In this document: in pieces, positions 1,836 through 40,353 of the stretch
How the letters are laid out: every line of letters starts with the position of its first letter
Numbering within the stretch: position 1 is the stretch's first letter
Virus record (IMG/VR): IMGVR_UViG_2690316068_000002
Source: a virus
Taxonomy: Duplodnaviria > Heunggongvirae > Uroviricota > Caudoviricetes
Direction: 5' to 3' (one strand)
DNA length: 64,000 nucleotides
Translations under genes and position numbers: made by a program
The notes under the pieces: generated by a model
Told to the model about the DNA's origin: nothing
Database searches by the model: none
What the model saw: the letters and a program-made list of their open reading frames with translations, nothing else

Positions 1836-1898
1836 CTTCTTTCTCGATAGGTAAGTGATTACCTATTTTTGCATTTGATTTTATGTCTGGCAATCAAA

Positions 1899-5565: not shown

Positions 5566-6669
5566 TCACACCGCCACTGGAACCTTGATCCACGGTAGAG
5601 GGTCATAGCCAAGAATTAAAACCTCGTCCCATTTGAAATCATCCAACTCTGACCATTCATGAGGGAAAATAACGACCGGATCTGAATGCTCTGGAGCCTG
5701 TCGTTTCATTAGCTCACACACACCTTCCATGTGGTTGTTGTACAAATGCACGTCAAAGCCAAAATGCACAAATGCACCGGCCATGTGACCCGTAATCTTC
5801 GCGAGAAAATGAGTGAGAATGCCATAGCCAGCAATATTGAATGGCATACCAACAAAAGTGTCTACGCTACGCTGTACGAGGCAGGAGTTGAGGATGCGTT
5901 TGGGGATTCCAAGTTCATCCAGTTCAGCTTCAGTAACACTGCCGTCCATCTCCAGATCGTATAGCATCTTGGTGTAGATAGACTCGTAACCGAGGCGACT
6001 GTGTTGAAGACCAATGTCAGTTGCCATCGTTAAACGGGTTTCAAAATCCAGCTCACGACTCCACAAAGAGAAGACAAAGTGGCAAGGTGGCAGTTTCATA
6101 TCCTCAAGCTCGCCTACGTTCCATGCGTTAAGCATGATGCGACGATCGGTAGGGTTCGTGCGCAGTGTATCGACAATACGCTGTAGCTGATCGATTTCAC
6201 GGGACAGCACTACGCGATCTTCACTGATACCCAGGTATCCCTCGACTTTGTACCCGCGTTCACGGAAAGTAGCGATCTTGCTCAGATATTCACTATGGCT
6301 CACGATGCGGGTATCTTCCCATCGACGCCACTGCTTACCGTAAACCGGCCCCAAATCGCCATTCTCATCGGCCCATGCATCCCAAATCTTAACGCCGTTA
6401 TCCTTGAGAAATTGGATGTTGCCCGTGCCTTTCAGATACCACTCAAGTTCGACAAGTAGTGGCTTAAGATTTACCGCCTTTCCAGAAATAAGCGGCACAG
6501 TCCCACCAGTAAGCATGTAGTAAGAGGGAACGTAGCAGGTGCTTAAAGTGCCAGTGCCTGTGCGATCATCAGCCTGCACGCCGCTTTTAAGCACCGTCTC
6601 AATAACTTTTGCATACGATGCGTTTGTTACCTGACCGTTCGTATGCTCTCGATTCAAAAGGAGTGACAC
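5566..6669 (-). CDS. thyA: thymidylate synthase
   Basis: DRTGTGT motif, catalytic PPCH motif; 367 aa; non-ATG (GTG) start at 6669 with GAGG RBS. Confidence 0.9.
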   Translation of the reverse strand: MSLLLNREHTNGQVTNASYAKVIETVLKSGVQADDRTGTGTLSTCYVPSYYMLTGGTVPLISGKAVNLKPLLVELEWYLKGTGNIQFLKDNGVKIWDAWADENGDLGPVYGKQWRRWEDTRIVSHSEYLSKIATFRERGYKVEGYLGISEDRVVLSREIDQLQRIVDTLRTNPTDRRIMLNAWNVGELEDMKLPPCHFVFSLWSRELDFETRLTMATDIGLQHSRLGYESIYTKMLYDLEMDGSVTEAELDELGIPKRILNSCLVQRSVDTFVGMPFNIAGYGILTHFLAKITGHMAGAFVHFGFDVHLYNNHMEGVCELMKRQAPEHSDPVVIFPHEWSELDDFKWDEVLILGYDPLPWIKVPVAV

Positions 6670-6684
6670 AAAAACCTCACAAAG

Positions 6685-6700
6685 ATAAGTAATTACTTAT
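6685..6700. promoter_or_regulatory. promoter-proximal palindrome ATAAGTAATTACTTAT (member of recurrent operator-like family)
   Basis: Perfect 16-bp palindrome 16 nt upstream of thyA start. Confidence 0.4.
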
Positions 6701-9029: not shown

Positions 9030-11345
9030 TCAGATTTTGCAGGCTCCGTCGCACTCATCTTCTGGCTCGACGGCTACAGCTTGCGTAAGTGGATTCTGCG
9101 CTTCGTCGTCATCACGCTTTCCTGCACCATCTCTGGTGTTGTGGTAGTAAAGCGTTTTAACTCCCATCTTGTAGGCGAGAAGCAAATCTGACAGTAGCGT
9201 CATCATTGGGACTTTATCGCCTTCAAAGCGAGAAGGGTCATAGTTGGTATTAGCTGAAATAGCCTGGTCAAAGAACTTCTGGATGATCGCCACCTTTGTC
9301 AGATAGCCGCGGTTGTCCGGCATATCCCACAGGTATTCATACTGTTCCTTCAGTTTTTCAAACTCAGGCACGACCATCTTAACGATGCCGTCCTTAGAAG
9401 ATTTCACCGACACCGGGCCACGAGGCGGTTCGATGCCGTTGGTGGAATTAGTGATCTGGCTGGAAGTCTCGCATGGCATTTGTGCCGTCAGAGTGGAGTT
9501 GCGAAGGCCGTATTTTGCAATACGTTCACGCAGTTCTTCCCACGGCATCTTTAACTCAAAGTTGGTTTCGCCGCTTTCGTCTAATGAAGAACGGTAATGG
9601 TCGATCGGCAACTGACCAATTGCGTATTTGGTCTGCTCAAACCAGTCACACTCACCTTTTGCTTCAGCAAGTCGGCAGCTGGCGTCAAGAAGGTAATACT
9701 GGATAGCTTCGAACGTTTCATGCACCAGTTTATTGCCAGCGGTATCAGAATAACGAACGCCATTCTTTGCCAGGTAATAAGCAAAGTTGGTTACACCAAT
9801 TCCCAGGCTACGACGAGCTTTGGCAGGCACTTCGGCTGCCTCCATCGGATAGTCTTGATAATCCAGTAACGAATCCAGTGCAGCAACGGCATAGAACGCC
9901 ACCTCTTTAAGAGACTCCAGTGAACGGATGGCTCCGAGGTTAAAAGCGGATAAAGTGCATAGCGCGATCTCACCGTTCGGGTCGTCGGTAAATGCCAGTG
10001 GACGGGTGGGTAGAGTGATCTCCATGCACAGGTTTGACTGGCGAACAGGTGCAAGAGCAGGAATGAAAGCGCCATGCTCGTTAATATGATCGACGTTCGC
10101 AATATAAATTCGGCCCGTGGACGCTCGTTCCTGCATCAGAGATGAGAACAGCTCAATGGCAGGTACTGACTTCTTGCGAATTGAATCATCGGCTTCGTAT
10201 TTATGGTACAGCTTTTCAAACAGATCCTGGTCTGTGAAGAAGGCTTCGTACATATCAGGCACATCATGCGGGCTGAACAGAGTGATGTTCTCGCTTCTGA
10301 CGAGTCGACGGTACATTAGACGGTTACTCATGACGCCGTAATCAAGATGGCGAACGCGGTTTTCATCAATACCACGGTTATTTTTCACCACCAGCAGACT
10401 TTCAACCTCAAGATGCCAAATCGGGTAAAACGCTGTTGCTGCGCCACCACGAACACCACCTTGCGAACAAGATTTAACAGCCGTCTGGAAATGCTTCAGG
10501 AATGGAATAACTCCGGTATGGGTGGCTTCACCATTGCGGATCTCGCTGCCCAGCGCACGGATACGGCCAAAACCAATACCAATTCCAGCACGACGTGAAA
10601 CGTAGTCGATAATTGCGGCTGAAGCTGCACTAATCCCTTTCAGACTATCGCCAGACTCAATCAGCACACAACTGGAGAACTGACGGGTTGGAGTACGGAC
10701 GCCGGCCATGATTGGTGTGGGCAGAGACAGTTTGAACGTACTTGTAACGTCATAGAAACCTTTGACCATCTCCATACGTGTTTTGCCAGCGCAGTCGTCT
10801 TCCCAATTCTGGAACAGACACATGCCTACCAGCATATAGATATGTTGCGGCCCCTCATGAATCTCACCAGTAACACGGTTTTGAACGAGGTATTTGCTTT
10901 GCAACTGCACCGTAGCTGCATAGCCAAAAAGATCGTCACGTTTCGGCTTAATGTAATTGCCGAGTTCTTCGATCTCTTCAAACGAATAATGTGTCAGCAA
11001 ATCCTTGTCATAAACGCCCTTGTTAACGTTCTTGACAATGTGTTGGTAGAAGTTCGGATAGTCGTAACGACCGAAGGCATCTTTGCGGATTTTAAAAATG
11101 TTCAGGCGGGCAGCCACCTGTGAGTAATTTGGTGCTTCTGGTGAGATCAAATCAGCGGCAGATTTAACCAAAGCCTCATGCAACTGGCTGGTGGTAATCC
11201 CATCAAAAATGCTGGCCGCAGCTCCCATTGCTACAGCGGATGCGCTTACACCACGAATGCCTTCTACGCCATACATTACGACGCGGTTGTATTTTTCTTC
11301 GGATAACGGCTCTGTTTGGCCGTTACGTTTTACGATGCTTATCAT
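9030..11345 (-). CDS. nrdA: ribonucleotide reductase class Ia large subunit
   Basis: 771 aa; RNR catalytic-core motifs including C-terminal cysteine pair; adjacent to nrdB. Confidence 0.92.
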   Translation of the reverse strand: MISIVKRNGQTEPLSEEKYNRVVMYGVEGIRGVSASAVAMGAAASIFDGITTSQLHEALVKSAADLISPEAPNYSQVAARLNIFKIRKDAFGRYDYPNFYQHIVKNVNKGVYDKDLLTHYSFEEIEELGNYIKPKRDDLFGYAATVQLQSKYLVQNRVTGEIHEGPQHIYMLVGMCLFQNWEDDCAGKTRMEMVKGFYDVTSTFKLSLPTPIMAGVRTPTRQFSSCVLIESGDSLKGISAASAAIIDYVSRRAGIGIGFGRIRALGSEIRNGEATHTGVIPFLKHFQTAVKSCSQGGVRGGAATAFYPIWHLEVESLLVVKNNRGIDENRVRHLDYGVMSNRLMYRRLVRSENITLFSPHDVPDMYEAFFTDQDLFEKLYHKYEADDSIRKKSVPAIELFSSLMQERASTGRIYIANVDHINEHGAFIPALAPVRQSNLCMEITLPTRPLAFTDDPNGEIALCTLSAFNLGAIRSLESLKEVAFYAVAALDSLLDYQDYPMEAAEVPAKARRSLGIGVTNFAYYLAKNGVRYSDTAGNKLVHETFEAIQYYLLDASCRLAEAKGECDWFEQTKYAIGQLPIDHYRSSLDESGETNFELKMPWEELRERIAKYGLRNSTLTAQMPCETSSQITNSTNGIEPPRGPVSVKSSKDGIVKMVVPEFEKLKEQYEYLWDMPDNRGYLTKVAIIQKFFDQAISANTNYDPSRFEGDKVPMMTLLSDLLLAYKMGVKTLYYHNTRDGAGKRDDDEAQNPLTQAVAVEPEDECDGACKI

Positions 11346-11362: not shown

Positions 11363-11384
11363 GGGCCACTAAATATAGTGGCCC
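11363..11384 (-). terminator. rho-independent terminator
   Basis: GGGCCACT...AGTGGCCC stem followed on minus strand by TCTTTATTT. Confidence 0.55.
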
Positions 11385-11418
11385 ATGTTAATAGATAAGC
11401 ACTTACCTATCAATGAAA

Positions 11419-14876: not shown

Positions 14877-15962
14877 TCACACAGCCTCCGAACTCTCCGC
14901 TTCGGTGAGGATTTCCTGACACAAAATATCCAACTTGCTCAGATCAAATCCGCCGTCAGTATCGTGGACAATCTTGCAATAAGCAGATACCGACTCTCCC
15001 AGGCTATCGATTTTGCTGGTTTCCGTTGTGCTTGCTGTCCCTTCCATCATTGATGACTTACGGATGAAGTTGCACACAACACCTTTTGCACCCATTGTTT
15101 TGAGGATGTTCTGGTACTTAATGCCTTCTTCGTCGTTCTCGATTACGGCGCGGAAACGCACGTAGTTGCCGCGAATTTGGTCATCAGCAACATAATCTTC
15201 CAGGTTAATGAATTTAGGCGCACTAGTTTCGTAGTGACTAAAACTGCCGTCCGGGTTTACGATCATGTAACCAGCCAGAGAGCCAACATCCCCCCAATTT
15301 TGATGGGTCAGTGCACCGACACTGATAACTCCAGGAATGACCTCTTTGTGGTTGTGGTAATGCCCACTAAGCACGAGACGAAAGCCGATATCCTTTAACT
15401 CCTGCGCATCAATACCGACGTCAGGCATTGTTGGAATGGCTTTGTTGATGGATGTATGGATAACAACGTCATGGTTATCACCTTCTACGCTCTTACGTAA
15501 CGTTTTCAGATCGCTGATAAGCTCCGCATGATTGTTACGCCAGCTAATCAGGTGGACAGTGACATCACCAATTTTTATTGAGTGTGGGCGTTTTCCACAT
15601 ACGATTACCACGCCGATAGAACTCAGCGATGCTGCTGCGTTGGCGCTATATACTGAATCGTTGGTTTCAAGATCGTGATTACCGGCCAGCATTACTACTG
15701 TCAGATCAAGCTCGTTGATAATCCACTTGTACGTTTCAGTTACGTAATGCAGAACAGAAGGGGACACAGTTCCTCGGACGTGAAATGTATCACCGGCAAC
15801 CAACATGTACTTACAACCAGCCTTCTTCATGGCGATGGCGGCTTCTTTCGTTGCTTCCAACTGTATTTCAAGTCTGGAGTTAAGCCCCTCAGCGTTCGTC
15901 GTGGAGAACGCATCCCATTTGTGGTAGTGGCAGTCAGAAATGACGCCGTATGGCAAAGTCAT
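14877..15962 (-). CDS. sbcD: SbcD/Mre11-like metallophosphatase nuclease
   Basis: ORF 14877..16058 trimmed to ATG at 15962 (AAAGGAAAAACAC upstream); DCHYH, GDTFH and GNHD phosphoesterase motifs. Confidence 0.75.
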   Translation of the reverse strand: MTLPYGVISDCHYHKWDAFSTTNAEGLNSRLEIQLEATKEAAIAMKKAGCKYMLVAGDTFHVRGTVSPSVLHYVTETYKWIINELDLTVVMLAGNHDLETNDSVYSANAAASLSSIGVVIVCGKRPHSIKIGDVTVHLISWRNNHAELISDLKTLRKSVEGDNHDVVIHTSINKAIPTMPDVGIDAQELKDIGFRLVLSGHYHNHKEVIPGVISVGALTHQNWGDVGSLAGYMIVNPDGSFSHYETSAPKFINLEDYVADDQIRGNYVRFRAVIENDEEGIKYQNILKTMGAKGVVCNFIRKSSMMEGTASTTETSKIDSLGESVSAYCKIVHDTDGGFDLSKLDILCQEILTEAESSEAV

Positions 15963-16075: not shown

Positions 16076-16095
16076 ATAGGTAAGTGAATACCTAT
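16076..16095. promoter_or_regulatory. promoter-proximal palindrome ATAGGTAAGTGAATACCTAT
   Basis: Member of recurrent palindrome family; ~115 nt upstream of sbcD start. Confidence 0.4.
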
Positions 16096-18084: not shown

Positions 18085-18186
18085 GTATGCTGTCAGCGGT
18101 AATTGATAGTCTGTCAGCGGTTCACCGTATGCTGCCAACTGTTTTTGGTATTCTGTCAGCGGCAAATCAAGTATGCTGTCAGCGGT
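18085..18186. repeat. iteron array upstream of repA (5 copies)
   Basis: GTATGCTGTCAGCGGT-like 16-mers at about 18085, 18107, 18127 (degenerate), 18148, 18171. Confidence 0.8.
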
Positions 18187-18206
18187 TGAATGACAAAGGT
18201 GTCCAC

Positions 18207-19301
18207 ATGTCCACAAAAAATAAAAAAGGTAAAAATAACAAAGAAGTAGAAGATAACATCGACAACTTTGAAGAAGGTTCCCTTGAATTGTACACAGGGG
18301 AACTTGTCCCTAATAGCAACAATACAGTCCAACCAATTGCGTTGATGCGACTGGGGTTGTTCGTCCCCACGCTTAAGGGAACAAAATACAGTAAACGTAA
18401 CAAGCCAAATGAGATCGATGCTTCAAAGGAGCTTGTCCAGCTCGAAGTAGCCCGTTCTGAAGGCTATTCCGATATCAAGATAACCGGCCCTCGCCTGGAC
18501 ATGGATCATGATTTCAAAACGTGGGTGGGCGTTGTGCGTTCGCTGGCAGAATACGGCGAACCTAATGGTCGTGTCGAGTTAAGCATCACGAAATTTGCGA
18601 AGTTTTGTGGCTATCCATCGTCACAGATCCGCAAAACACTCCGCGACCGGCTTACAAACAGTCTTTTGAAGATCATGCGTACAACTCTGTCTTTCCAGAG
18701 AACGTATGAAGAAAAGAACGTCGACGGCTCTAACAAGATCTCGCTTCTGATGGTGCACCTCATCAATAGCGTGGACTACAACGAGCAGAAAGATACGGTG
18801 GTGTTCTATGCAGAACCGAAGCTGGCCGAACTATATCGCTTTGACCATAAGGTTCTTTTGCAGTTAAAGGTTATCAATAAGCTACCACGCAAAGAAACAG
18901 CACAGGCTCTGTACACCTTCATCGAAAGTCTTCCAACCAAGCCTGCGCCGGTATCGCTTGCTCGATTGCGTGCGCGACTCAATTTGAGTAGCAGGAATGT
19001 CAGCTCGCAGAATCAGACTATACGTAACGGCTTAAAAGCTCTCCAAGATTTGGGCTATCTCGAATACAGCGAGATTAAGCGTGGGCGGTCGATCTATATC
19101 CAGATTCACAGCCGCAATCCAAAACTCAAAGTCGCACCGCCAAAACCTGAAGACATCGAACCCAAAAAACCAGATGAGAAAGCTGGGGAAATTGATGCCA
19201 AACAGAACATTATCAACAAGATAACCGAACTTTCGCAGAATTTGACGCCTGAAAATATCAAGATGATTGAGATCCTTTCCAATAGTCTCAAACTGCTTTG
19301 A
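18207..19301 (+). CDS. repA: plasmid-type replication initiator (RepA-like)
   Basis: ORF 18087..19301 trimmed to ATG at 18207 (AAAGG RBS; longer ORF would run through the iterons); assignment rests on flanking iterons, DnaA box and GATC cluster, not on recognised protein motifs. Confidence 0.6.
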   Translation: MSTKNKKGKNNKEVEDNIDNFEEGSLELYTGELVPNSNNTVQPIALMRLGLFVPTLKGTKYSKRNKPNEIDASKELVQLEVARSEGYSDIKITGPRLDMDHDFKTWVGVVRSLAEYGEPNGRVELSITKFAKFCGYPSSQIRKTLRDRLTNSLLKIMRTTLSFQRTYEEKNVDGSNKISLLMVHLINSVDYNEQKDTVVFYAEPKLAELYRFDHKVLLQLKVINKLPRKETAQALYTFIESLPTKPAPVSLARLRARLNLSSRNVSSQNQTIRNGLKALQDLGYLEYSEIKRGRSIYIQIHSRNPKLKVAPPKPEDIEPKKPDEKAGEIDAKQNIINKITELSQNLTPENIKMIEILSNSLKLL

Positions 19302-19418
19302 TATGCTGTCAGCGGTGAAATGTATGCTATCAGCGGCTATTTTTCTGAAAAGTATGCTGTGAACGGTTAAAGATATGCTACCAGCGGTATAGTGAGATAA
19401 ACGTATGCTGTGAGCGGT
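19301..19418. repeat. iteron array downstream of repA, cluster 1 (5 copies)
   Basis: 16-mers (G/A)TATGCT(G/A)(T/C)(C/G)A(G/A)CGG(T/C) at about 19301, 19322, 19342, 19373, 19403. Confidence 0.8.
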
Positions 19419-19577
19419 AAATCATCTATCACCACTCAATGCTCTGGCATACCTCCCCAGTGGTTACTAACCTCGAAGAGTGCATTCCATATAGGTTTGC
19501 GCTCACTAACATTCTATTGCCGTTGCGCTGATTGCTTGTAGTGAAAGGCATTTATTGCCTGCTGCTCCCTGATAGAA

Positions 19578-19832
19578 CGTATGCTGTCAGCGGTGTTTTA
19601 TTGAGGAATTTTTGTTTGGATATGCTATCAGCGGTAATTAATGGTATATGTCAGACCTTCGTATGCTGCCAGCGGTAATTTTGTTCTGGTTATACCCATA
19701 CCGGTACACATTATTCATGCAATGTCTTAAGTATGCTGTCAGCGGTAAAAAATCGAGTAAAGTATGCTGTGAGCGGTGAGATAAACTCTCGATATGCTAT
19801 CAGCGGTAATTGATTGTGTATGCTGTCAGCGG
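19578..19832. repeat. iteron array downstream of repA, cluster 2 (7 copies)
   Basis: Same 16-mer family at about 19578, 19619, 19660, 19730, 19761, 19791, 19817. Confidence 0.8.
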
Positions 19833-19845
19833 TGACGACTATGAA

Positions 19846-20093: not shown

Positions 20094-20428
20094 TATCCAA
20101 CCTCCTTGCAGTCATCGAAAAGGTAGCTTTGCTGAGAAGCGTGAACGCCATAGAAGCCCTTGTATTTGTTGTATACGAAGTGGTCTTCTCCTACGCCGGT
20201 TAATTTGCCATTACGGTTTGTGAGATATGGGGATGACAATACTCGATCGTCACGCACTACATAGAACTGGTCGCCGCTGTCTACGACCATCGCGCCATAT
20301 GGTGCTTTTATGACGTCGGTAAAAGCGCCATTCTTAATGTCGGCTACAGACATTTCACACTGATAAACAGTGGTGTCGGCCACAACGATCGAAGAAAGGA
20401 ACAACAGAGCGAATGGGATGGCCTTCAT
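20093..20428 (-). CDS. hypothetical secreted protein
   Basis: N-terminal signal peptide MKAIPFALLFLSSIVVA. Confidence 0.5.
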   Translation of the reverse strand: MKAIPFALLFLSSIVVADTTVYQCEMSVADIKNGAFTDVIKAPYGAMVVDSGDQFYVVRDDRVLSSPYLTNRNGKLTGVGEDHFVYNKYKGFYGVHASQQSYLFDDCKEVG

Positions 20429-20604
20429 GCTGCCACCTCTTTGATTACATCAAATGCTGAATTAAATACGAGCACGATAGCCAAAGCGTTTATGACTACT
20501 TCGTTCACCGGGGAAAAGACTTTACGAATGACACCAGTGAAAATGCAGTCGATGACAAAAGCTATTGACACGATGAGTAACAAGTATTCAATAAAAATCT
20601 TCAT
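20425..20604 (-). CDS. small hydrophobic membrane protein (59 aa)
   Basis: Below the 60-aa ORF cutoff, found by manual translation: MKIFIEYLLLIVSIAFVIDCIFTGVIRKVF...; ATGA overlap with downstream gene. Confidence 0.35.
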   Translation of the reverse strand: MKIFIEYLLLIVSIAFVIDCIFTGVIRKVFSPVNEVVINALAIVLVFNSAFDVIKEVAA

Positions 20605-20643
20605 GATAGGTAGATACTAACTTATATAAATTTTACTGTAAAC

Positions 20644-22325: not shown

Positions 22326-22526
22326 TTATTTCCCCTTTGCTTTGATTAATGAGTTGATAAACTTACGACCAGCAATAAGACCGATTACAGGAGCACCAAA
22401 ACCAACGATAACTCCAAACATGACGGCTAAATCACTCTTGGTAGAAATCAGCGACGGAACCAGTAAACCGTAGATGAGAGCCACTGAAAGGCCTGTGGCT
22501 ACTGCCAATAGATAGATTTTGATCAT
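22326..22526 (-). CDS. small two-TM membrane protein
   Basis: 66 aa, two hydrophobic helices; immediately upstream of SPFH gene. Confidence 0.45.
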   Translation of the reverse strand: MIKIYLLAVATGLSVALIYGLLVPSLISTKSDLAVMFGVIVGFGAPVIGLIAGRKFINSLIKAKGK

Positions 22527-22590
22527 GTGTTTTCCTATGTGGTTGTTATGCGAAAATAATAAGTAAGTGCTTATATATTTTCAAGAGATA

Positions 22591-24965: not shown

Positions 24966-25994
24966 TTACAGAGAGTCCAGCTCTCTCAGTAGGTCATCCA
25001 GACCTTCATCTTCCGTCGCAGATGCGGTTGCTACAGATGTCGCTGCGACTGCTTCAGACTCTTTGACTGATACGGCAACGGCAGCGGAACTTGCCTCTGG
25101 TTTAAATTCAGTTTCAACGGCACGGAGGATTTCTTCATCAACCAGACTGGTTGGTTCAGAAGCCGGTGTGTGCGCGGTTGCTACAGCCGTCGCTCCTTCT
25201 GTATGACCAGTGACAGAGCCAAATCCAGGTAGTGCCGCAGCCGATGTTTTCGCGGTTGAGGAAATTGCTGGTGCAGATGCTGCGGCAGTTGGTGCAGCGA
25301 TGCCAATCAGACGACCCATAGTGCGAACTGTCGACAGAAGACGAGTTTCATCAGCCTGATTTGCGTATGCGATCAGATCATGCTGGGTGTTCCAGAATTT
25401 ATCTTCGATATCGCCTTTGTAGACTTTACGCTTAGGCGAGACGTCATATTTGGTATCGCGACCAGAGCCAGTACGTTTAATCAGGAATGCGTAGCCTTCC
25501 TCTTTGCTCAGTGGATTGCCGATATCATCAGCGATGTCTTCGGTGATTGCTTTGCAGATATCATCGAATACAGTAGACGGCAGCTCGATTAACTGGCATT
25601 TCTCAGCATCTGCGAAATCCTCACGAGCAGAAAGAATGCCGTTGACCAGGTAGCGAGGAGTGGCACGCATTTGACCGATGCGTTCTTCCATTGCTTTGTT
25701 ACCCTTGTGACGAGCGCGACCTTCCATAACCATTTCGCATAGCTGACAAGCGCGACCGTGAGTATGTTGCTCACAAATATAAGCGTTGGTTGCTTCTTTA
25801 CCTTCCTCGTTCTGATACTTAACGTAGTGCATACCGAAAGTCTGGAAGAACTTACCGTTTGGGTCGTCTTTATTCGGGAAGATGCGGATATAGTTGACGC
25901 CGTCTTTTAAGCGAGTCAGATCAACGTTGTTGCCACGTTTGGCGGCAATGTCTTCACGAGTTTTGTTAAGCAAATCAAGTAATGTCTTAGACAT
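24966..25994 (-). CDS. putative ssDNA-binding protein (gp32-like)
   Basis: Cys/His cluster CEQHTHGRACQLCE, Ala/Ser/Thr-rich linker and acidic C-terminal tail EDEGLDDLLRELDSL typical of SSBs. Confidence 0.5.
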   Translation of the reverse strand: MSKTLLDLLNKTREDIAAKRGNNVDLTRLKDGVNYIRIFPNKDDPNGKFFQTFGMHYVKYQNEEGKEATNAYICEQHTHGRACQLCEMVMEGRARHKGNKAMEERIGQMRATPRYLVNGILSAREDFADAEKCQLIELPSTVFDDICKAITEDIADDIGNPLSKEEGYAFLIKRTGSGRDTKYDVSPKRKVYKGDIEDKFWNTQHDLIAYANQADETRLLSTVRTMGRLIGIAAPTAAASAPAISSTAKTSAAALPGFGSVTGHTEGATAVATAHTPASEPTSLVDEEILRAVETEFKPEASSAAVAVSVKESEAVAATSVATASATEDEGLDDLLRELDSL

Positions 25995-26111
25995 GTGTTT
26001 CTCCTTGTTGTGATTTGGCCGATGGCGCTATGCGCGTTGGGCTTTCGTTCATTCGTGGCTCTTTCGAGCTGTTAAATGATAGATCAGTACTTACTTATTA
26101 TCTATCAAAAA

Positions 26112-27646: not shown

Positions 27647-27975
27647 TGATGCCCGCCAATTGGCGGGCATCTGTTCTCTGTAAAGGTGTCTGGCATCGTC
27701 TGGTTCGTTAACGTTTACTAAACCAATGGTGACAAAAATTAGTTATCTTTGAAAAATAAAGGTTGCATGAAAAGAAGGGGTATGCGTTAATAGCATCGTT
27801 GGTTTGCAAGACAGACCTTATGTAAGCAGTTTTAGTAAAGCAGTCTCAGTTCAGTGTTATCTTCTGATTTCCCTTCTTCGTGAGTCTCCTCCTTAAGTGC
27901 CTAAGTAAGTCCCAATCTATACAGATCAAATTCTCGCCGCACTATGTGGCTCACAAAATTAAGAAGGTAATATCT

Positions 27976-28191
27976 ATGTCTAATAAAATGACTGGTTTAG
28001 TAAAATGGTTTAACTCTGATAAAGGCTTTGGCTTTATTTCTCCTGCTGATGGCAGTAAAGATGTTTTTGTACATTTTTCGGCAATTCAGAGTAATAATTT
28101 CCGCACTTTGGAAGAAGGCCAGCAGGTCGAATTCTCTATCGAGAATGGGGCTAAAGGCCCAGCAGCAGCAAATGTCGTTGCTCTAAGTTGA
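27976..28191 (+). CDS. cold-shock protein (CspA family)
   Basis: [71 protein letters not shown] is near-identical in pattern to E. coli CspA/B/G; RNP1/RNP2 motifs present; AAGAAGG RBS; long leader. Confidence 0.9.
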
Positions 28192-32013: not shown

Positions 32014-32197
32014 GTGTTTTTACCTTTCTGGTTTTTTTGATTTTGTCATTTGGGAAGCCTACGAACTTCCCATGCATCGAAATCGCAACTTCTTTTGCTG
32101 ATTGGTGACAATCGGGCTTGTCTGGACACACCAGACAAGCCTTACCAGTTTCAGAAGCAGCGATAAGAGAGCCGAAACATCCTTTACGCACGATCAA
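31988..32197 (-). CDS. small Cys-rich hypothetical protein
   Basis: 69 aa; CLVCPDKPDC motif; ATGA overlap with upstream AAA ATPase gene. Confidence 0.35.
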   Translation of the reverse strand: MIVRKGCFGSLIAASETGKACLVCPDKPDCHQSAKEVAISMHGKFVGFPNDKIKKTRKVKTHEGTDGSN

Positions 32198-33429
32198 CCA
32201 AATATTTTTTGAACAACTTCACGAGCCGCTTGTGCAGAAGCTGAAGGGAGTTTGTTAATGAAAGAACGCTCAATACCTGTCACAAAGTCGCCTCGCATCA
32301 TTCCAATCTTGGCCGACAACAAAAGTTCACGAGGGCCAATTGGCTGACTGATAAGGTGTTCTTCGTATCCATCGCGAACGATACCGGCAAACTTAACCAT
32401 CTTTTCTGCGTATTCATCCACGATACCGGCATTTATCAACATGTTGATCTCTGCCTCTTTGCTCATGTATTTCACATTCGAAACGATGCCAAAACGCGAA
32501 AAGTTCGCGGCGTTCTGGATGTTTGTACCCTGGTACAAGCCGGTTTCATCACCAGATCCGTTCGTGTTGCCAGTGCCAATGAAAGCAAACCGTTCATGCG
32601 GAGTAATGCGACGCCATTCTGGAGTCGCCTCTTTGATGACCAACGCTTCACCTTCCAGCACTGGCTGATACACGCCAAGAATCTGTGGAAACGCAAAGTC
32701 GTATTCATCCGCGAGGTAAACCCAGCCATGCTTCATTGCGAGCGCAAGCAAGCCAGGCTCGAAATACGTAGAGCCATCACGCGCCAGAATTTGTCCCGTA
32801 ACATGAGCCTCTTCCATTGATGCTGTATGTTGGGCACGGATTAACGGACGATTGAGCAAAGCACATAGTTGTGTAGGCAATGAAGATTTGCCTGTTCCTG
32901 CATGACCCCACAAATAGCCAGGTATGCCAAGTTCAAGCATCATGAAAATGTCTTTGATCAGTTCGAAGTCGCCATATACGTATCCCTTCTTCACTTCTGG
33001 AACGAACTCTGGAAACGGCGTATTGACGTTGACGCTAACCATGAGCGGCGTCCCACGTTTTGTTCCGAGTTCTTTCACCGTTACATTTAGCAGTTCGTGA
33101 GCTGCGACCAGATCTGTCTTGTACTCAACTGTGCCTGTGTAGCCTGGGCTACTGGTCACGCCAGATGATTTGGCCATTTCGCTTTTTTGCTCGGCACGTT
33201 TAGCTTGAATTGCATCAAGTGCCTTTTTCGATAGCGTTGGCTCATCTGGAAACTGTGTTGTGTACATTTTCAGTACGGTGTCAGGATCGGCATCTTTTAC
33301 TGACTCAGGAATGCCCTCGCAATTACCATTGGCAACATGGGACTTAAAATAGTGAAATGATTTTCCGCACCACTTGCAAACAAGGTAATCAGAAGGATTT
33401 TTTTCATTTTGCAGTGCAGTAGTAGTCAT
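32194..33429 (-). CDS. MoxR/CbbQ-type AAA+ ATPase (CobS-like)
   Basis: Walker A GHAGTGKSS and Walker B VYLADEYD in MoxR-like arrangement. Confidence 0.7.
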   Translation of the reverse strand: MTTTALQNEKNPSDYLVCKWCGKSFHYFKSHVANGNCEGIPESVKDADPDTVLKMYTTQFPDEPTLSKKALDAIQAKRAEQKSEMAKSSGVTSSPGYTGTVEYKTDLVAAHELLNVTVKELGTKRGTPLMVSVNVNTPFPEFVPEVKKGYVYGDFELIKDIFMMLELGIPGYLWGHAGTGKSSLPTQLCALLNRPLIRAQHTASMEEAHVTGQILARDGSTYFEPGLLALAMKHGWVYLADEYDFAFPQILGVYQPVLEGEALVIKEATPEWRRITPHERFAFIGTGNTNGSGDETGLYQGTNIQNAANFSRFGIVSNVKYMSKEAEINMLINAGIVDEYAEKMVKFAGIVRDGYEEHLISQPIGPRELLLSAKIGMMRGDFVTGIERSFINKLPSASAQAAREVVQKIFG

Positions 33430-33524
33430 GCGTTTTTCCTTTGTTTTCTAATGAGCGTTCAACTTCTTATATAAATATATCATTATCTATCGTAAGTGGT
33501 TACTTATCATTAAGGCTGTTTTAT

Positions 33525-35633
33525 TCACTTCAAAATGATACGAGATAGTTCAGTAACTACAGATGAACCAAGACTATCAACGCTCGTTACCAGGGCATGA
33601 TTTGAGTAAAATCTCTCCGGTGCGTCAGTCATGATGCCAATTGCCATCAAATCAATGTCAGTCTGCGTTTCAATTTGCTTCGCAACCGAACGCAAATGAG
33701 CGTCAAAACCTCTCCCAACAGCCCACGGCTCGCCATCGCTCAGAACAAGCATGATCTTCCTGTCCTCCATGCGACCGGAAAATAACGATGCAAGGCTGGC
33801 TATGCTTTCACCATCCACGTTATTAAGAAGTGGGAATGTGTAGCCTACGCACCCCATACGTGAGCGAACTTCGCGAGAATTTACCTTTTCATTCCAATTT
33901 TTGATGATAGGTAGCATTAAAGATTCAAAGCGAGAGAACTCATACTTGACAGCCTTAAGTTCTCCTGCCGCCATATGACTACCAAATGTAGTGAAGCCGG
34001 TGATAATGTTGGGAACATTTATTCGATCAAGGGCATCGGCGATGGTATATGCACTTGCAAGAGCCAATTGTATCGTTATACCCCTCATTGAACCTGATAA
34101 ATCAATCACTTGTTGAACACAGGCGTTAACGGCTTTAGATTCTTCTTTTTTACGAAACACGCGATCATCATTCATTGCTAATCTGTAGATACTAGAACCA
34201 TGAATGCGCCCCCGACGCTGGCCCGGTATAAACTGAACTCTGTTTCTGCTTGCTATTGCTCGCTCCAGGTCTTTTGCCAGCGTCGACGAAACACCTGACG
34301 AAAGATGCTTTTCAATATATTTGTCGAAGAGCTGGTTGCCTTCAGGAACGATGCGATAGCGGCTGATTGGACATCCTCCTAAATCAATATCGGAGAATGT
34401 TTTAATAAGCCGTTTGATATGGGCTTCTGCCTGATCAATCGAGCCGATGAAGTCGTATGAGCGATTGTATGGCCTGTATTCGCTTTTCGAGCTTTCTGTT
34501 AACTCGCTTTTAATCGTTTCGGATAGAGCATCTTCTGTCATGCCTCCGACTTCATCTTCTATGCTATCCAGCTCCTCTAAAGCCTCTTCCAGACTCATTT
34601 TTGACGGAGTTGGAATATCTGAAGAGCCGTCTTCTGTCGTTTTTCTTTTTTCGTGGTCAGCGGTTAATGATTCTGACGCCGCGTTATCAGAAGCATCAGA
34701 ATCTGATACCTCTTTATCATTTTCTGTATCATCGAATATTGTTTCTGATGATTCAGAATTATCTGAATCATCACTGTCGTTATTATCATGTTTGTGCTTA
34801 CTGTGTGATTCTGATTTGATAGATTTGTGATTATCTAACGATGAGGGTGTCTCATGATCTTCGTTGTCTTCATTGTTTTCTCCAGAGGCATCCGTCTGGT
34901 CAGCGTCTGAAGGATCGGAAGTTTTTCCCGGAGCTGACTCCTTACCTTTGCTTTCACTTTCAGTGTCTTTGAGGATCTTAGCTATGGTCGCAGCCACCTT
35001 TACACAATCCTCGGTGCAAGACATGTTACGCACGGCCACATCGATACCATGTTCTTTTAATAATGAAATTGGTTTCTCAATGACAGGCCAGTATTCATCC
35101 ATGAAATCTACGAACGGTGCTTGGCCATCCCAGGCTCTTACAACCGGACAGAGAAAGAAGTTTAGAAAAAGCGCGCGCTGATCTTTGCCACAATAAGCAA
35201 TAGCCTCTGAAGCCTTTGGTTTAAAGACTTTTTCGATTATAAGGCGCTGAGTTGCCATCAGATTACGTCTTGTTCCGTTAAAGACCTGACCCATTTTTCG
35301 CTCGATGAACACGTCTTCTAAGGCATTCCATAGCGACCAGGAAGGAACGCGTCCTTTTTCTCTCATTTTGTTGGACACACGAATATCGGTAAACAAAATG
35401 TGAGCAACCTCATGATCGAGAAATCCGCGCACAGCATTCATCAATGCCGGTGTTGCGTTATCCGGGATTGATGGGATGTTTACGAGAATTGGCTCTCCAT
35501 CATCGTTATAGCGTACATAAGCGTCGTCCCCTCGTTCTGCAACAGGGATGTTTTTACCTGAAAGGAGAGCGACTACTCGTTTTACACTGTCACGGAAGTC
35601 CTGAACCTCTTTGATGGAACGTTTTTTAGACAT
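33525..35633 (-). CDS. von Willebrand factor A domain protein (CobT-like)
   Basis: C-terminal vWA with VIDLSGSMRG motif; central Ser/Asp/Glu-rich low-complexity acidic region. Confidence 0.65.
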   Translation of the reverse strand: MSKKRSIKEVQDFRDSVKRVVALLSGKNIPVAERGDDAYVRYNDDGEPILVNIPSIPDNATPALMNAVRGFLDHEVAHILFTDIRVSNKMREKGRVPSWSLWNALEDVFIERKMGQVFNGTRRNLMATQRLIIEKVFKPKASEAIAYCGKDQRALFLNFFLCPVVRAWDGQAPFVDFMDEYWPVIEKPISLLKEHGIDVAVRNMSCTEDCVKVAATIAKILKDTESESKGKESAPGKTSDPSDADQTDASGENNEDNEDHETPSSLDNHKSIKSESHSKHKHDNNDSDDSDNSESSETIFDDTENDKEVSDSDASDNAASESLTADHEKRKTTEDGSSDIPTPSKMSLEEALEELDSIEDEVGGMTEDALSETIKSELTESSKSEYRPYNRSYDFIGSIDQAEAHIKRLIKTFSDIDLGGCPISRYRIVPEGNQLFDKYIEKHLSSGVSSTLAKDLERAIASRNRVQFIPGQRRGRIHGSSIYRLAMNDDRVFRKKEESKAVNACVQQVIDLSGSMRGITIQLALASAYTIADALDRINVPNIITGFTTFGSHMAAGELKAVKYEFSRFESLMLPIIKNWNEKVNSREVRSRMGCVGYTFPLLNNVDGESIASLASLFSGRMEDRKIMLVLSDGEPWAVGRGFDAHLRSVAKQIETQTDIDLMAIGIMTDAPERFYSNHALVTSVDSLGSSVVTELSRIILK

Positions 35634-35731: not shown

Positions 35732-35944
35732 TTAACAGATTCTGACGGCTAAAGACCAGGAGCCGGTATTGAGAAGCGTGAAGCGTTTGTTGTTAAGTTC
35801 GAATATAAAGCCAGTTGTGTCATTCACACCAACCTGAATCTGCTCATTCGGTAGATCGGTGAGGATGTCAGCTACACACTCATCAGCTAATTTCTGTACG
35901 TGTCCGATCTCAAGAGCGATTAGGCTGGAAATAGTGGTGTTCAT
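35732..35944 (-). CDS. hypothetical protein
   Basis: 70 aa ORF. Confidence 0.4.
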   Translation of the reverse strand: MNTTISSLIALEIGHVQKLADECVADILTDLPNEQIQVGVNDTTGFIFELNNKRFTLLNTGSWSLAVRIC

Positions 35945-36122
35945 TCAATCAATCCATTCTAACTTATACTATGGTAAGGAATACTACTAAAATTTGTATC
36001 AATACTGAATACATTCATATCATATGCAAGTTGATTTTCTTACCTGTTTTGGGCTAATTTTTCTCCGTGCAATGGCCTTTAACCGGTCTTTTAAGTGCCT
36101 ATCGAAAAAAATGATAATAGCT

Positions 36123-36164
36123 TTACAACCCTAACCTTTGATGTAATATCGGTAAGCACTTACC
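36123..36164 (+). promoter_or_regulatory. sigma70-like promoter with operator-like palindrome at the predicted start site
   Basis: TTTACA-16 nt-TAATAT followed directly by GGTAAGCACTTACC (36151-36164), upstream of the HTH regulator. Confidence 0.5.
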
Positions 36165-36195
36165 AGAGAGAATTGAACGCGCAAAGGTTGTAACC

Positions 36196-36582
36196 ATGTC
36201 TGATAACAAGATTGAATTTATAGAAAGTCGCTACGCTGCTTTTATCGCAGGGTTGATTGAATCCTCACCTATGAGCCAGGCCCAGATAGCCAAAACAATT
36301 GGGTATAAAAACGCCAACAACCTTTCTTTAATTAAAAGCGGCAAAATTCCTTTGCCTATCGATAAGGTTCGTCCGCTGGCGCTGGCACTGGGCATTGAGC
36401 CAAGTCGTCTTATGATGATGGTGCTGGAAGAACGCCAACCCGAACTCGCAGCATTTTTATACAAAGAAGGCACTGCTCCTCTTAACGAGGACGAAAAACA
36501 GGTTCTTGCTGCATATAACGAGCGATTCGGTAAAGAGAAAGGCGCATCACAAAAGGTTGTTGAGGCCATAAAGTCTCTATGA
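36196..36582 (+). CDS. helix-turn-helix (XRE-like) transcriptional regulator
   Basis: HTH-like segment SQAQIAKTIGYKNANNLSLIKSGK; 128 aa; convergent with recombinase gene. Confidence 0.6.
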   Translation: MSDNKIEFIESRYAAFIAGLIESSPMSQAQIAKTIGYKNANNLSLIKSGKIPLPIDKVRPLALALGIEPSRLMMMVLEERQPELAAFLYKEGTAPLNEDEKQVLAAYNERFGKEKGASQKVVEAIKSL

Positions 36583-37680
36583 AAAATTTACACGAATAAG
36601 CTCTGTTGATAGACGATCTCCCTTAAATTTGTGGTCAATTTCGTCTAAATCCGGTTGCTCTACGATTGATGCGATGTACGTCGAGAAACTTTCTAAGGCG
36701 TCTCGCATCTCGTCCATATAATCGTGCCGGTCGTAGACCCGATCTATCCCCTCAAGACTGTGGTTCATGATTTTACGTGATACCTCCTGGCTTATGCCTA
36801 ATGCTGGGAAGTAACTACGCGCAGTACGGCGCAAATCTCGGGGTGTAAATGGCTCAAGCTCCATCAGTTCTGGTCGTTCCAGAATACGACGTAATGCCTG
36901 GGCTATTGCCACTTTAGACATAGGAAGGTCTTTCCCGATTTTTTTATTCGAAGGCACGAGCCACTGGCTGTCTTTACCATATTCGAACAACTCTTCAATA
37001 CAAGTGCGCATTAATGAGCTTAAAGGCAGAGAATGCTCACGGGCAGATTTGTTCCTCTTGCCTTGATTCCAAACCCCACGCTTAAGATTGAACTCACTTT
37101 TTTTAGCCCGCAGTACTTCGTCAGGTCGTCTTGCGGATACAAGACATAGCCTGGCCGCCCATTTTGTACCAGCACACACATTGAAGTAGTCCCATATATT
37201 CCAGAACACCCATACCTCTGCGTCGGTCAGCTTCCGCTCGCGAGGTGTGGGCTTTGCGCCACCGGCAACTTTGTTAAGTGACATATCGTTTAACGGTGAC
37301 ACGTCTATCATCCCCTGGAAGGCGCACCAGCTAAGGAACTGCTTCATCAGAGAGAAAACGCGGCGGCCCATAACAATTTTGCCATCCAGTATTAGTGGGT
37401 TGACCAGTTGGTTCACCATGAACCTATTAATGTCACTTACTTTTACATCGGCAATGTGCGGCAAAACATGTATCAAAATACAATGAACAGCGATCTCTGG
37501 CCGACGTCTGGTTATCAGCAGAGATAAGCGAGTGAATAACATGAATGCGTCCGAGAATCTCATGTCATTGCTGACCTGGGAGATCATAACGGCCTGCATT
37601 TGAGATGCTCTTTCGAGATACTCTATCGCCTCTTTTGAGGTGTTCTCCGCAGCGCGTGCTCTGTCAAAGCTATTTTTCAT
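36577..37680 (-). CDS. tyrosine site-specific recombinase (phage integrase family)
   Basis: C-terminal catalytic domain with RPDEVL (Arg I), box II variant FTPRDLRRTA, and HSLEGIDRVYDRHDY containing candidate Tyr nucleophile. Confidence 0.8.
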   Translation of the reverse strand: MKNSFDRARAAENTSKEAIEYLERASQMQAVMISQVSNDMRFSDAFMLFTRLSLLITRRRPEIAVHCILIHVLPHIADVKVSDINRFMVNQLVNPLILDGKIVMGRRVFSLMKQFLSWCAFQGMIDVSPLNDMSLNKVAGGAKPTPRERKLTDAEVWVFWNIWDYFNVCAGTKWAARLCLVSARRPDEVLRAKKSEFNLKRGVWNQGKRNKSAREHSLPLSSLMRTCIEELFEYGKDSQWLVPSNKKIGKDLPMSKVAIAQALRRILERPELMELEPFTPRDLRRTARSYFPALGISQEVSRKIMNHSLEGIDRVYDRHDYMDEMRDALESFSTYIASIVEQPDLDEIDHKFKGDRLSTELIRVNFS

Positions 37681-37778
37681 ATGACAATCACCGAGTTACG
37701 CCGATGCACTGTATAAGTAAACAGTATATTAGGCATAGATTCTTATAGGATCAAGAGTAAAAGTAACTCATTTTCAGC

Positions 37779-37811
37779 AATGATTCCATACATAGTAGGT
37801 ATGGAATCATT
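37779..37811. other. candidate recombination site: perfect 13-7-13 inverted repeat
   Basis: AATGATTCCATAC-atagtag-GTATGGAATCATT, ~100 bp upstream of the recombinase gene; architecture like loxP/dif/FRT. Confidence 0.55.
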
Positions 37812-38310: not shown

Positions 38311-38330
38311 ATAGGTGAGTCATTACCTAT
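38311..38330. promoter_or_regulatory. promoter-proximal palindrome ATAGGTGAGTCATTACCTAT
   Basis: Member of recurrent palindrome family. Confidence 0.4.
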
Positions 38331-38469
38331 TTAATGTGTTTGGTTACTAAGCAGAAATGGCTTTGTGAGGTTGACACATTAGAAACGGCAAGACAGCTTT
38401 AAACTAGCTGAAATGGTATGGTCGATTAGGTATCATTCAGTTTCAAAATTAACCAAAGACACTGATAAA

Positions 38470-39881: not shown

Positions 39882-39968
39882 TGGCGGAGAGTAATGGAAT
39901 CGAACCATCATCGCTTGCGCAATGGGACGGTTTTCAAGACCGCTTGAGCACCATGCTCCCTACTCTCC
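39882..39968 (-). tRNA. tRNA-Ser (anticodon UGA), type II with long variable arm
   Basis: Minus-strand GGAGAGT...CTTGAAA...GGTTCGATTCC...ACTCTCCGCCA; 7-bp acceptor stem, T-loop TTCGATT, anticodon loop CUUGAAA; D-arm atypical. Confidence 0.6.
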
Positions 39969-40257: not shown

Positions 40258-40261
40258 AATT

Positions 40262-40348: not shown

Positions 40349-40353
40349 TAAAT

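Follow-up and report, generated by a model that had tools for sequence, protein, structure and literature searches.

The stretch of DNA analysed here, hereafter the window, comprises 64,000 nucleotides of IMG/VR record IMGVR_UViG_2690316068_000002 and was assigned by megablast to the SSU5 group of phage-plasmids. Identity reaches 97-98% with Escherichia phage Cyrano (pLF82), CMS-2020a and PhiR41_1, compared with ~76% for Salmonella phage SSU5. Window positions 1-64000 match ~79.3-15.3 kb of Cyrano on the reverse strand, and gene annotation was transferred from this phage. The gene content covers nucleotide metabolism, recombination, replication, partition, toxin-antitoxin functions, lysis and tail, with nearly all lytic genes on the minus strand; coding DNA amounts to 55.9 kb and the non-coding share is ~12.6%. 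SSU5-type elements form the largest phage-plasmid supergroup, with 268 members (PMC9600943). Here we describe a family of palindromes that recurs in the intergenic gaps of this element, together with the control circuit to which it probably belongs.

An inverted repeat of 16-20 bp had been reported upstream of many start codons in the original prediction, which listed ten full sites and six half-sites. This palindrome family is real, and every one of these sites is present at, or a few bases from, the position first given. The repeat unit, however, is not of variable length but a 20-bp imperfect dyad with the halves ATARGTAAGT and ACTTACYTAT (Table 1). Four of the six half-sites, those upstream of the single-stranded-DNA-binding protein (SSB) gene, hyp31, the holin/lysis genes and minor tail protein L, are full dyads, so that the half-site label does not hold for them. 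The perfect 16-bp palindrome upstream of ThyX exists as described but also fits the 20-bp frame. The site at the promoter of the helix-turn-helix (HTH) gene is present as well, as a core-only variant from which the outer TA/TA, invariant elsewhere, is missing. A strong site upstream of hyp60 was missing from the earlier list.

The motif is far more frequent than its composition predicts. The half-site ATARGTAA occurs 22 times in the window compared with 3.2 expected, a count that none of 100 shuffles reached, and ATAAGTAA is the commonest 8-mer of the window. All ten exact matches to ATARGTAAGT are intergenic. When up to three mismatches are allowed, ATARGTAA-N4-TTACYTAT is found 20 times (0.63 expected); 16 such dyads are intergenic, compared with 0.27 (maximum 2) in dinucleotide shuffles of the intergenic DNA alone, an excess that upholds the enrichment first proposed. 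Coding DNA holds only two dyads at this threshold, and their density is ~56-fold higher in intergenic than in coding DNA. A position weight matrix scan returned 24 sites of at least 15 bits against 0.04 in Markov simulations, a figure with some circularity, since these same sites served to train the matrix. The symmetry is equally genuine. Where sites were picked by one half, the partner half at the 20-bp register agreed at 7.4 of 10 positions (background 2.9). The dyad is therefore a real requirement and not a one-directional consensus, and the motif is more than the phage promoter consensus that had been considered as an alternative. An exact scan for the perfect dyad in 185,579 reference genomes (596 Gb) gave 13 scattered single matches in unrelated metagenome bins, about the chance level. 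As a side observation, each half-site consists of two tandem 4-mers (TARG-TAAG), which gives the match profile a 4-bp periodicity; in the Acinetobacter plasmid p107 both 4-mers are altered alike (TCAG-TCAG). This repetition may point to two or more reading heads per half-site or to a higher oligomer.

Table 1. Putative operator dyads of the window and the genes and promoters of its switch region. Promoter-like matches are given as -35 hexamer, spacer length and -10 hexamer.
Feature	Position	Strand	Context	Score (bits)	Promoter-like match	Remarks
Dyad ATAGGTAAGTGATTACCTAT	1847-1866		11 nt upstream of Dam methyltransferase start (1242-1835, -)	26.4	TTGCCA-17-AAAAAT, 1893 to 1865	0 mismatches
Dyad	6681-6700		11 nt upstream of ThyX (5566-6669, -)	23.1		contains the perfect 16-bp palindrome 6685-6700; terminator-like hairpin upstream of dyad, 6772 to 6754; regular 20-bp dyads at the orthologous SSU5 and pJN2-26 sites
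Dyad	11391-11410		upstream of NrdA (9030-11345, -)	26.7	TTGATA-17-TAACAT, 11413 to 11385	dyad within promoter spacer; conserved in SSU5 and pJN2-26
Dyad	16076-16095		upstream of SbcD (14877-15962, -)	24.5		orthologous sites in Cyrano, SSU5 and pJN2-26
Dyad	20606-20625		1 nt upstream of hyp60 start (20425-20604, -)	23.5	TTTATA-16-TATCAT and TTTACA-17-TAGTAT, overlapping the dyad	identical site in SSU5
Dyad	22559-22578		upstream of membrane-protein gene (22326-22526, -)	23.2	TTGAAA-17-TATTAT (10/12, best of the region), 22584 to 22556	dyad fills spacer; promoter preceded by terminator 22614 to 22594
Dyad	26079-26098		upstream of gp32-like SSB gene (24966-25994, -)	23.4	TAGATA-17-TATCAT, 26104 to 26076	19/20 columns identical in three genomes
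Weaker dyad	33471-33490		upstream of CobS (32194-33429, -)	19.6	ATGATA-17-GATAAT, 33510 to 33482	
Partial dyad	33492-33511		adjoins the weaker dyad upstream of CobS	11.2		
HTH gene promoter (predicted)	36122-36149	+	directly upstream of core dyad		TTTACA-16-TAATAT	
Core-only dyad GGTAAGCACTTACC	36151-36164 (frame 36148-36167)		directly downstream of HTH gene -10			proposed autoregulatory operator
Dyad	38311-38330		start of orf38138/glutaredoxin block (-)	22.6	ATGACT-17-TATAGT, 38323 to 38295	
Dyad	41177-41196		downstream of hyp39, ~750 bp upstream of tRNA cluster	25.4		orthologous sites in Cyrano, SSU5 and pJN2-26
Weak dyad	43822-43841		2 nt upstream of hyp35 (43337-43819, -)	16.3		gene-distal half good, gene-proximal half poor
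Dyad	44698-44717		upstream of hyp34 (43874-44656, -)	21.2		
Dyad	48132-48151		12 nt upstream of hyp31 (47379-48119, -)	24.1		
Dyad	52771-52790		upstream of holin/lysis genes (52385-52708, -)	24.0		3' TAT (gene orientation) is the start of a perfect TATAAT
Dyad	56983-57002		upstream of tail-fibre gene (52911-56939, -)	24.0		orthologous sites in Cyrano and SSU5
Dyad	63902-63921		upstream of minor tail protein L (63149-63880, -)	23.0		orthologous Cyrano and SSU5 sites have TAGATA-17-TATTAT
Proposed repressor gene (128 aa, putative XRE-type HTH, = CYRAN_45)	36196-36582	+				
hyp46 (70 aa)	35732-35944	-	divergent from HTH gene; first lytic-strand gene of switch region			
Integrase (int) gene	36577-37680	-	converges on and overlaps 3' end of HTH gene			
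Integrase promoter (predicted)	37707-37754	-			TTGATC (37754-37749), TAATAT (37731-37726), spacing 17	
LexA box TACTGTTTACTTATACAGTG	37726-37707		overlaps int promoter			core 37709-37724 is the only CTGT-N8-ACAG in the window

The dyads coincide with promoters, defined here as predicted sigma-70-like matches. Minus-strand matches overlap the dyads of Dam, NrdA, hyp60, the membrane-protein gene, SSB, CobS and orf38138. Across five genomes, a sense-strand match accompanies 64 of 97 dyads compared with 11% of random positions, and the start of the -10 element clusters at dyad position 17-18, 21 or -3. In the first two arrangements the dyad occupies the spacer and its terminal TAT begins the -10, whereas at -3 the dyad lies over the start site. 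The promoter-like match of Dam has its end inside the dyad, so that the dyad covers the start site. The antisense strand was used as a control because the dyad is symmetric and its ends themselves favour promoter-like matches; matches of at least 9/12 were found at 32 dyads in sense and at 9 in antisense (sign test p=1e-4). The dyads thus lie within promoters that point at the genes, and a protein bound there would keep RNA polymerase out. A fixed -35/-10 register around the dyad was not visible in a plain alignment of the flanks. The distance from dyad to start codon ranges from 1 to >110 nt, with many dyads lying 1-45 nt upstream.

Whole-genome scans located dyads at orthologous gaps in Cyrano (28), SSU5 (22) and the Klebsiella phage pJN2-26 (20), including positions inside the head, tail and lysis clusters. 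The 20-kb plasmid/accessory region has no dyad except one before a parB-like operon. In nine gaps aligned in three genomes, 82% of the columns within dyads are identical compared with 63% in the other intergenic DNA (p=1e-6).

Because many dyads lie near start codons and the element encodes a FljA-family protein, we also tested a model in which the palindromes act as mRNA hairpins, using all dyads of Cyrano and SSU5 in gene orientation. In both genomes the two half-site matrices are identical. Mismatches on the sense strand revealed no strand asymmetry, with G.U to A.C ratios of 24:19 and 16:17. Watson-Crick pairing at the variable R4/Y17 position holds in only 11 of 22 and 13 of 21 sites, roughly half, which shows that the two halves vary independently, and no compensatory covariation that would keep a stem was found among these dyads. 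The centre, which would form the loop, is the least conserved part. This pattern is that of a symmetric protein reading duplex DNA and not of a structured RNA. Nor do the dyads resemble terminators or repetitive extragenic palindromic (REP) elements: they are A+T-rich, have no T-run in sense orientation, and none of the terminator-like sites predicted in the window coincides with one. The LexA consensus CTGT-N8-ACAG is absent from the dyad family.

Several hairpins and isolated dyads were noted beside this family. A terminator-like hairpin with a T-run (11363-11384, -) lies between the NrdA dyad and promoter and the start codon, in the predicted leader, and may be an attenuator; a G+C-rich hairpin follows the tail-fibre dyad at 56961-56981. 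Two long related hairpins, CCTGCTTCTGTATAT...ATATACAGAAGCAGG, at ~1176-1218 and ~48236-48288 each surround an A+T-rich site that resembles the dyad (1188-1207 and 48249-48268). Expression in the lysogen is ~10-fold lower past the second of them, and these hairpins may be terminators combined with operators. A further dyad-like site (27901-27920, 18.2 bits) lies in a cold-shock-domain (CSD) gene at 27880-28191 (+; CSD E=4e-33), upstream of its CSD-coding part; the gene is not annotated in Cyrano and is on the strand opposite the lytic genes. Finally, a dyad is conserved within a CobT-like gene in the window (34819-34838) and Cyrano (16 bits in each), SSU5 (43661-43680, 24 bits) and pJN2-26 (91932-91951, 21 bits). 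Possible explanations are an internal promoter or a wrongly annotated gene boundary.

The HTH protein encoded in the switch region had been put forward as the binder, and comparative, indirect evidence supports its candidacy. It matches Pfam HTH_19 below the family cut-off (E=7.8e-4) and the PHROG 8 transcriptional regulators (E=1.3e-11). Its AlphaFold2 model is all-helical, with a mean predicted local distance difference test (pLDDT) score of 75, and Foldseek returned weak matches (E>=0.04) that are all XRE-type: C-proteins, lambda cI, 434 and Stl. A Peptidase_S24 domain was not matched. On this weak but consistent evidence, the protein is probably of the XRE/lambda-repressor type. The predicted HTH promoter and its core dyad, cGGTAAGCACTTACCag, are near-invariant in elements of E. 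coli, S. Typhi (pHCM2), Y. pestis (pMT1), Cronobacter and Klebsiella, while the remaining intergenic sequence upstream of the gene has diverged in the same five genera, leaving promoter and core dyad as a sharp footprint. The divergent gene hyp46 is a possible Cro-like partner. It belongs to PHROG 2627 (unknown function), its synteny is kept in enteric and Acinetobacter lineages, and its expression is low in lysogeny broth (LB) and reaches log2 10.8 in macrophage 6 h samples.

The HTH gene is a standard component of these elements. The HTH-integrase pair occurs in 865 records of the plasmid database, in numbers that match those of a capsid marker (HTH-int/capsid: Klebsiella 348/340, Yersinia 63/62, Salmonella 49/49), and a search with the Acinetobacter query found the HTH gene in all Acinetobacter relatives (154 records). 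A tblastn search with the HTH protein, run on a collection of 50,697 phage records built from GenBank genomes, gave matches in SSU5-type elements and a single fecal contig only. SSU5 itself has no HTH homolog. It is, however, 99.2% identical to a resident Enterobacter plasmid up to the junction of a 5.9-kb deletion, in which the hyp46-like gene, the HTH gene, the integrase gene and their neighbours are gone. SSU5 was isolated as a free phage and has been used for biocontrol (PMC10972627). The comparison with the Enterobacter plasmid indicates that SSU5 arose recently by loss of the immunity module, which would explain both its free-phage lifestyle and its still-intact operators. The objection that the HTH protein cannot be the binder, being absent from SSU5, was therefore rejected on the strength of the plasmid survey and this recent deletion.

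A further argument for the HTH protein is that its helix-turn-helix and the operator change together. Orthologs from the five genera are only 56-69% identical overall, yet keep GYKNxNxLSLIKxGxIPLP, and no change in the helix GYKNxNxLSLIKxG is seen where the operator is unchanged. In a second Klebsiella lineage the HTH protein is 48% identical and retains NANNxSLIKSG; the enteric operator is kept, with one copy 18 nt before the HTH gene. A. baumannii p107 combines the helix FKRPNVLSMIKSGE with an operator composed of ATCAGTCAGT and ACTGACTGAT, present at 15 sites compared with 1.56 expected and in three copies in the HTH-upstream region. A. baumannii pABTJ2, whose HTH protein is 30% identical to that of p107, combines the helix INQNMVSFIVRGK with an operator composed of ATTAGTAAGC and GCTTACTAAT (8 sites, 0.01 expected), a class that is also found upstream of its own HTH gene. 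The p107 and pABTJ2 operator classes are mutually exclusive in elements of the same host species, which rules out a host factor.

Expression was assessed in published RNA-seq data of LF82, the Cyrano lysogen, as normalised counts from LB and macrophage 6 h samples. The HTH gene reaches 95.8 counts in the lysogen, ~10x the background of 9.8. Other DNA-binding candidates are far lower, with 5 and 9.5 counts for the ParB-like genes, 7.8 for CYRAN_123, 6.4 for CYRAN_37 and 18 for the FljA-like gene. Genes that follow strong dyads are at the detection floor (5-11 counts). The leakiest dyad-preceded gene is hyp34, with 43.7 counts, and across the gap that holds the hyp31 dyad expression drops from 55-89 counts in the ParA operon to 6. 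In macrophage 6 h samples, dyad strength and downstream expression are inversely correlated (rho=-0.55, p=0.007), weaker dyads being followed by higher expression, which lends weak support to repression. Expression also falls across dyad gaps in one condition (p=0.014), as is expected for transcription-unit boundaries.

We conclude that the dyads are very probably promoter-embedded operators of an element-encoded repressor, and we hold with comparable confidence that they serve repression rather than another DNA-level role. The dispersed operators of a global repressor envisaged in the original prediction are thus supported by comparative, indirect evidence. As to the binder, we lean towards the HTH protein. 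Taken as a whole, an arrangement of dispersed dyad operators at lytic promoters that are read by the HTH repressor is, on balance, the account we consider probable. According to this proposal, a symmetric dimer (or higher oligomer) of the repressor would bind dyads placed in host-type sigma-70 promoters at the head of lytic blocks for DNA metabolism, replication, lysis and tail and, elsewhere, head genes. In the plasmid-prophage state the repressor would occupy ~20 sites in the window and ~28 genome-wide, blocking RNA polymerase from the -35/-10 spacer or from over the start site. The HTH protein would limit its own synthesis through the weaker core-only dyad at its own start site.

A number of observations weigh against this account. 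Every link between protein and site is comparative. The co-change of operator and HTH protein covers no more than three specificity classes, and because all proteins have diverged in these lineages, some other protein that diverged in parallel could account for it. The family assignment is weak: the Pfam score of 19.7 bits lies below the cut-off of 30.2, a sequence search of the PDB gave no matches, and Foldseek found none at E<=0.001. The HTH promoter's own site lacks the outer TA that is otherwise invariant, and the conserved bases span ~9 bp per half-site, which is long for a single HTH. Some dyads end just 1-12 nt before the annotated start codon, and their leaders must therefore be very short or absent, unless transcripts begin upstream. 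In the expression data, lytic genes without a dyad are equally silent in the lysogen, so that the silence of dyad-preceded genes is not discriminating, and the correlation of dyad strength with expression is not significant in LB (rho=-0.27, p=0.21). A general step-up of expression at dyads is missing. As proof of promoters, RNA-seq step-ups were unsupported in these still-repressed samples and only anecdotal at CYRAN_12, 56 and 60; the genes downstream of the hyp60 dyad step up by ~3.6 log2 in macrophage 6 h samples. The tRNA region (cluster at 39882-40428, -) is expressed in the lysogen despite the strong dyad upstream of it, although a closer tRNA promoter may exist.

The alternative to be taken most seriously, albeit unlikely, is that the dyads are operators of a different element-encoded protein and that the HTH protein controls only the local int/switch module. 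Candidates are the FljA-family protein (CYRAN_114/SSU5_121, outside the window), CYRAN_117, hyp46, and the small putative winged-helix proteins CYRAN_37 (window 41643-41858) and CYRAN_123. The atypical, core-only site at the HTH promoter would favour another binder, and the co-variation of operator and HTH is compatible with other co-diverging proteins. The FljA-like protein is kept in Cyrano, SSU5 and pJN2-26 (75-78% identity) and is as widespread in enteric plasmids as the backbone. Its gene, however, is only 1.8x background in the lysogen, and FljA-type repressors act on mRNA, preventing translation of fliC (PMC2652032), a mode of action that fails for the dyads. CYRAN_117, a small protein, is expressed at 12x background in the lysogen and is present in SSU5, but its identity falls to 52-58% across elements with an unchanged operator, and no DNA-binding domain can be recognised in it. 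Homologs of neither protein were found in the Acinetobacter plasmids, despite the same 20-bp operator architecture. The gene hyp46 is on the lytic strand and low in the lysogen. CYRAN_37, CYRAN_123 and the ParB-like proteins are at the expression floor and therefore cannot maintain repression. On these grounds a FljA-family binder combined with an RNA hairpin (strand symmetry, no covariation, low lysogen expression, no Acinetobacter matches), the silent ParB/KorB-like regulators, CYRAN_123 and CYRAN_37, and the poorly conserved CYRAN_117 were all rejected.

It is distinctly improbable that the dyads bind a lytic-phase activator or dual regulator that switches promoters on. Many of the dyad-linked promoters have a weak -35, typical of activator-dependent promoters, and dyads precede early-type and late-type genes alike. 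MerR-type activators bind dyads in promoter spacers. The matched spacers are, however, 16-18 bp long, compared with 19-20 bp in typical MerR-type promoters, and dyads over the -10 and start site occupy positions of steric repression. A single activator for early, lysis and tail genes would provide no temporal order, weaker dyads accompany higher rather than lower expression, and SSU5 is productive as a phage without the sole co-varying regulator.

The idea that the palindromes are 5'-leader mRNA hairpins (translational operators, processing sites or stabilisers), possibly for the FljA-like protein, takes its appeal from the closeness of many dyads to start codons and from the FljA-family gene itself. 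We regard it as very improbable, since neither strand asymmetry nor compensatory covariation was seen. Moreover, the stem sequence is conserved and the loop is not, the distance to the start codon is variable, no U-tract follows in sense orientation, and the same dyad architecture occurs in the Acinetobacter elements, where a FljA homolog was not found. Hardly any credence is left for sites of a host factor, e.g. of NarL type, or for a non-transcriptional function in partition, packaging or nicking: a conserved host protein would fit the motif's invariance in elements of E. coli, Salmonella and Klebsiella, each half-site contains what we take to be a NarL-type heptamer (TACYYMT), and ParB-like genes are present, one preceded by a dyad, but two plasmids of one host species have mutually exclusive operators, the 7-2-7 arrangement of NarL differs from the dyad in half-site orientation and from its 6-bp separation, the dyads are confined to promoter-bearing lytic-strand gaps and oriented with the promoters, and the ParB-like genes are silent in the lysogen.

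For the repressor circuit with the HTH protein at its centre, the integrase promoter offers a candidate SOS input. The LexA box that overlaps this promoter, itself conserved, has invariant arms and a variable interior in six lineages (E. coli, pHCM2, pMT1, Cronobacter and two of Klebsiella). In all six, int runs convergently into the 3' end of the HTH gene. Cyrano is induced 39-fold by ciprofloxacin, and SSU5-like elements are inducible by mitomycin C. As the HTH protein has no S24 domain, SOS induction must be indirect, and with a LexA-box int promoter directed at a convergent HTH gene, LexA-gated convergent transcription becomes a candidate trigger; an antirepressor encoded elsewhere on the element is equally possible. 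DNA damage would fire the int promoter, convergent or antisense transcription would lower the repressor, and ~28 promoters would open together without RecA cleavage or an antirepressor. That the dyads are the output of such an SOS switch, of a type so far undescribed in phage-plasmids and built on a non-cleavable, probably XRE-type repressor, is a tentative and rather doubtful suggestion. In the two Acinetobacter lineages examined, int and the HTH gene share a strand, with int downstream, so that the two genes do not converge; Acinetobacter is not known to have a canonical LexA. Just upstream of the int promoter we also noted a conserved 13-7-13 inverted repeat, AATGATTCCATAC-ctactat-GTATGGAATCATT (37779-37811), shaped like a lox/dif-type tyrosine-recombinase site, with single arms at ~31749, 40624 and 41636.

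The overall layout is reminiscent of phage P1, the likeness drawn in the original prediction, which holds at the functional level only. Both are plasmid prophages in which one master repressor would act on many dispersed promoter operators, P1 C1 having more than 15 over its genome, and in both the repressor gene is located in a dedicated immunity region. As in P1, this region of the window also holds a tyrosine recombinase and a lox-like inverted repeat. However, C1, which does not belong to the XRE-type HTH proteins, binds asymmetric operators of 17 bp, whereas the window has a symmetric 20-bp dyad and a small lambda-repressor-like HTH candidate. Owing to this symmetry and the lack of similarity, the protein does not belong to the C1 family. 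P1 also controls its late operons indirectly through Lpa, whereas dyads here are found inside the head, tail and lysis clusters as well.

Individual parts of the circuit resemble lambda, 434 and P22 c2: a putative XRE/lambda-type HTH fold (on weak evidence), dyad operators of 14-20 bp over core promoters, divergent transcription of the repressor gene and the first lytic gene, and a repressor promoter that has an operator of its own. Lambdoid operators, however, are clustered at OL/OR, whereas those of the window element are dispersed over ~28 promoters, and lambda-type cI has an S24 self-cleavage domain, unlike the 128-aa HTH protein with its ~9 conserved bp per half-site. Without an S24 domain and with unclustered operators, it is not a canonical cI. 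Similar to LexA/SOS and to KorA/KorB of RK2, a small dimeric repressor would read graded palindromic boxes at many promoters, including its own, with box strength setting leakiness, comparable to the inverse correlation seen here. The LexA box is nevertheless unrelated to the dyad, the true LexA box being the separate one at the int promoter, and the KorB/ParB-like proteins of the element are unexpressed in the lysogen. C proteins of restriction-modification systems (C.AhdI) rank among the top structural matches to the HTH domain, weak as these are (template modelling score 0.70 on the target, 62 columns). They are small XRE proteins that bind dyads over their own promoter, as is proposed for the HTH candidate; in contrast to it, they serve one operon through paired operators as activator and repressor, and no restriction-modification context is evident here. 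The comparisons support a P1-like dispersed-operator immunity network put together from lambda-like parts, with a symmetric operator, a small putative HTH repressor and a divergent switch.

In the SSU5, pHCM2 and pMT1 literature that we searched, no operator is mentioned, the motif appears in no paper in a relevant context, and lysis-lysogeny control of SSU5-type elements is treated as unknown. The control circuit is of an ordinary, expected phage type, with an operator and repressor not yet described for this family. A defined operator, a candidate repressor and a candidate SOS input make the switch directly testable. They would also allow promoters and transcription units to be annotated across ~800 plasmids and immunity groups to be predicted from the operator/HTH class. 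Interest in the circuit stems from the medical and ecological reach of the plasmid family, which takes in S. Typhi pHCM2, the Y. pestis pMT1 backbone and resistance-carrying plasmids of Klebsiella, Enterobacter and E. coli. At least three natural repressor/operator pairs on one 20-bp scaffold appear to be mutually orthogonal, and the three operator classes could be used as orthogonal parts in synthetic biology.

Further features of the element came to light alongside the dyads. Next to the immunity module, a 429-aa open reading frame (38413-39702, +) stands in place of CYRAN_43 in a variable 'moron' slot; it has no Pfam or PADLOC match, and CYRAN_43 is the top-expressed Cyrano gene in the lysogen, at 723x background. 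Outside the window, Cyrano encodes a stand-alone, UmuD-like S24 peptidase (CYRAN_98, 89311-89700) that is expressed at ~15x background in the lysogen and gave no tblastn match in SSU5 or pJN2-26. In pABTJ2, a sigma-70-family sigma factor is encoded between the MoxR/CobS-like gene and PolIII alpha (15110-15775), a gene that is not annotated in enteric members.

About 16 iterons (TATGCTGTCAGCGGT and variants) lie on both sides of the RepA gene (18087-19301, +), at 18090-18190 and 19300-19840, the layout seen in P1, where RepA iterons also occur on two sides (incC/incA). The window RepA is only 50% identical to that of Cyrano, and the replicon has therefore been exchanged relative to the closest relative. 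Finally, a translation-start context, AAAACACATG (-), recurs at 8927, 15960, 20917, 22524, 32011 and 45911. It is common to NrdB, SbcD, hyp59, the membrane-protein gene and PolIII alpha, and the copy at 45911 suggests a primase start other than the annotated one.

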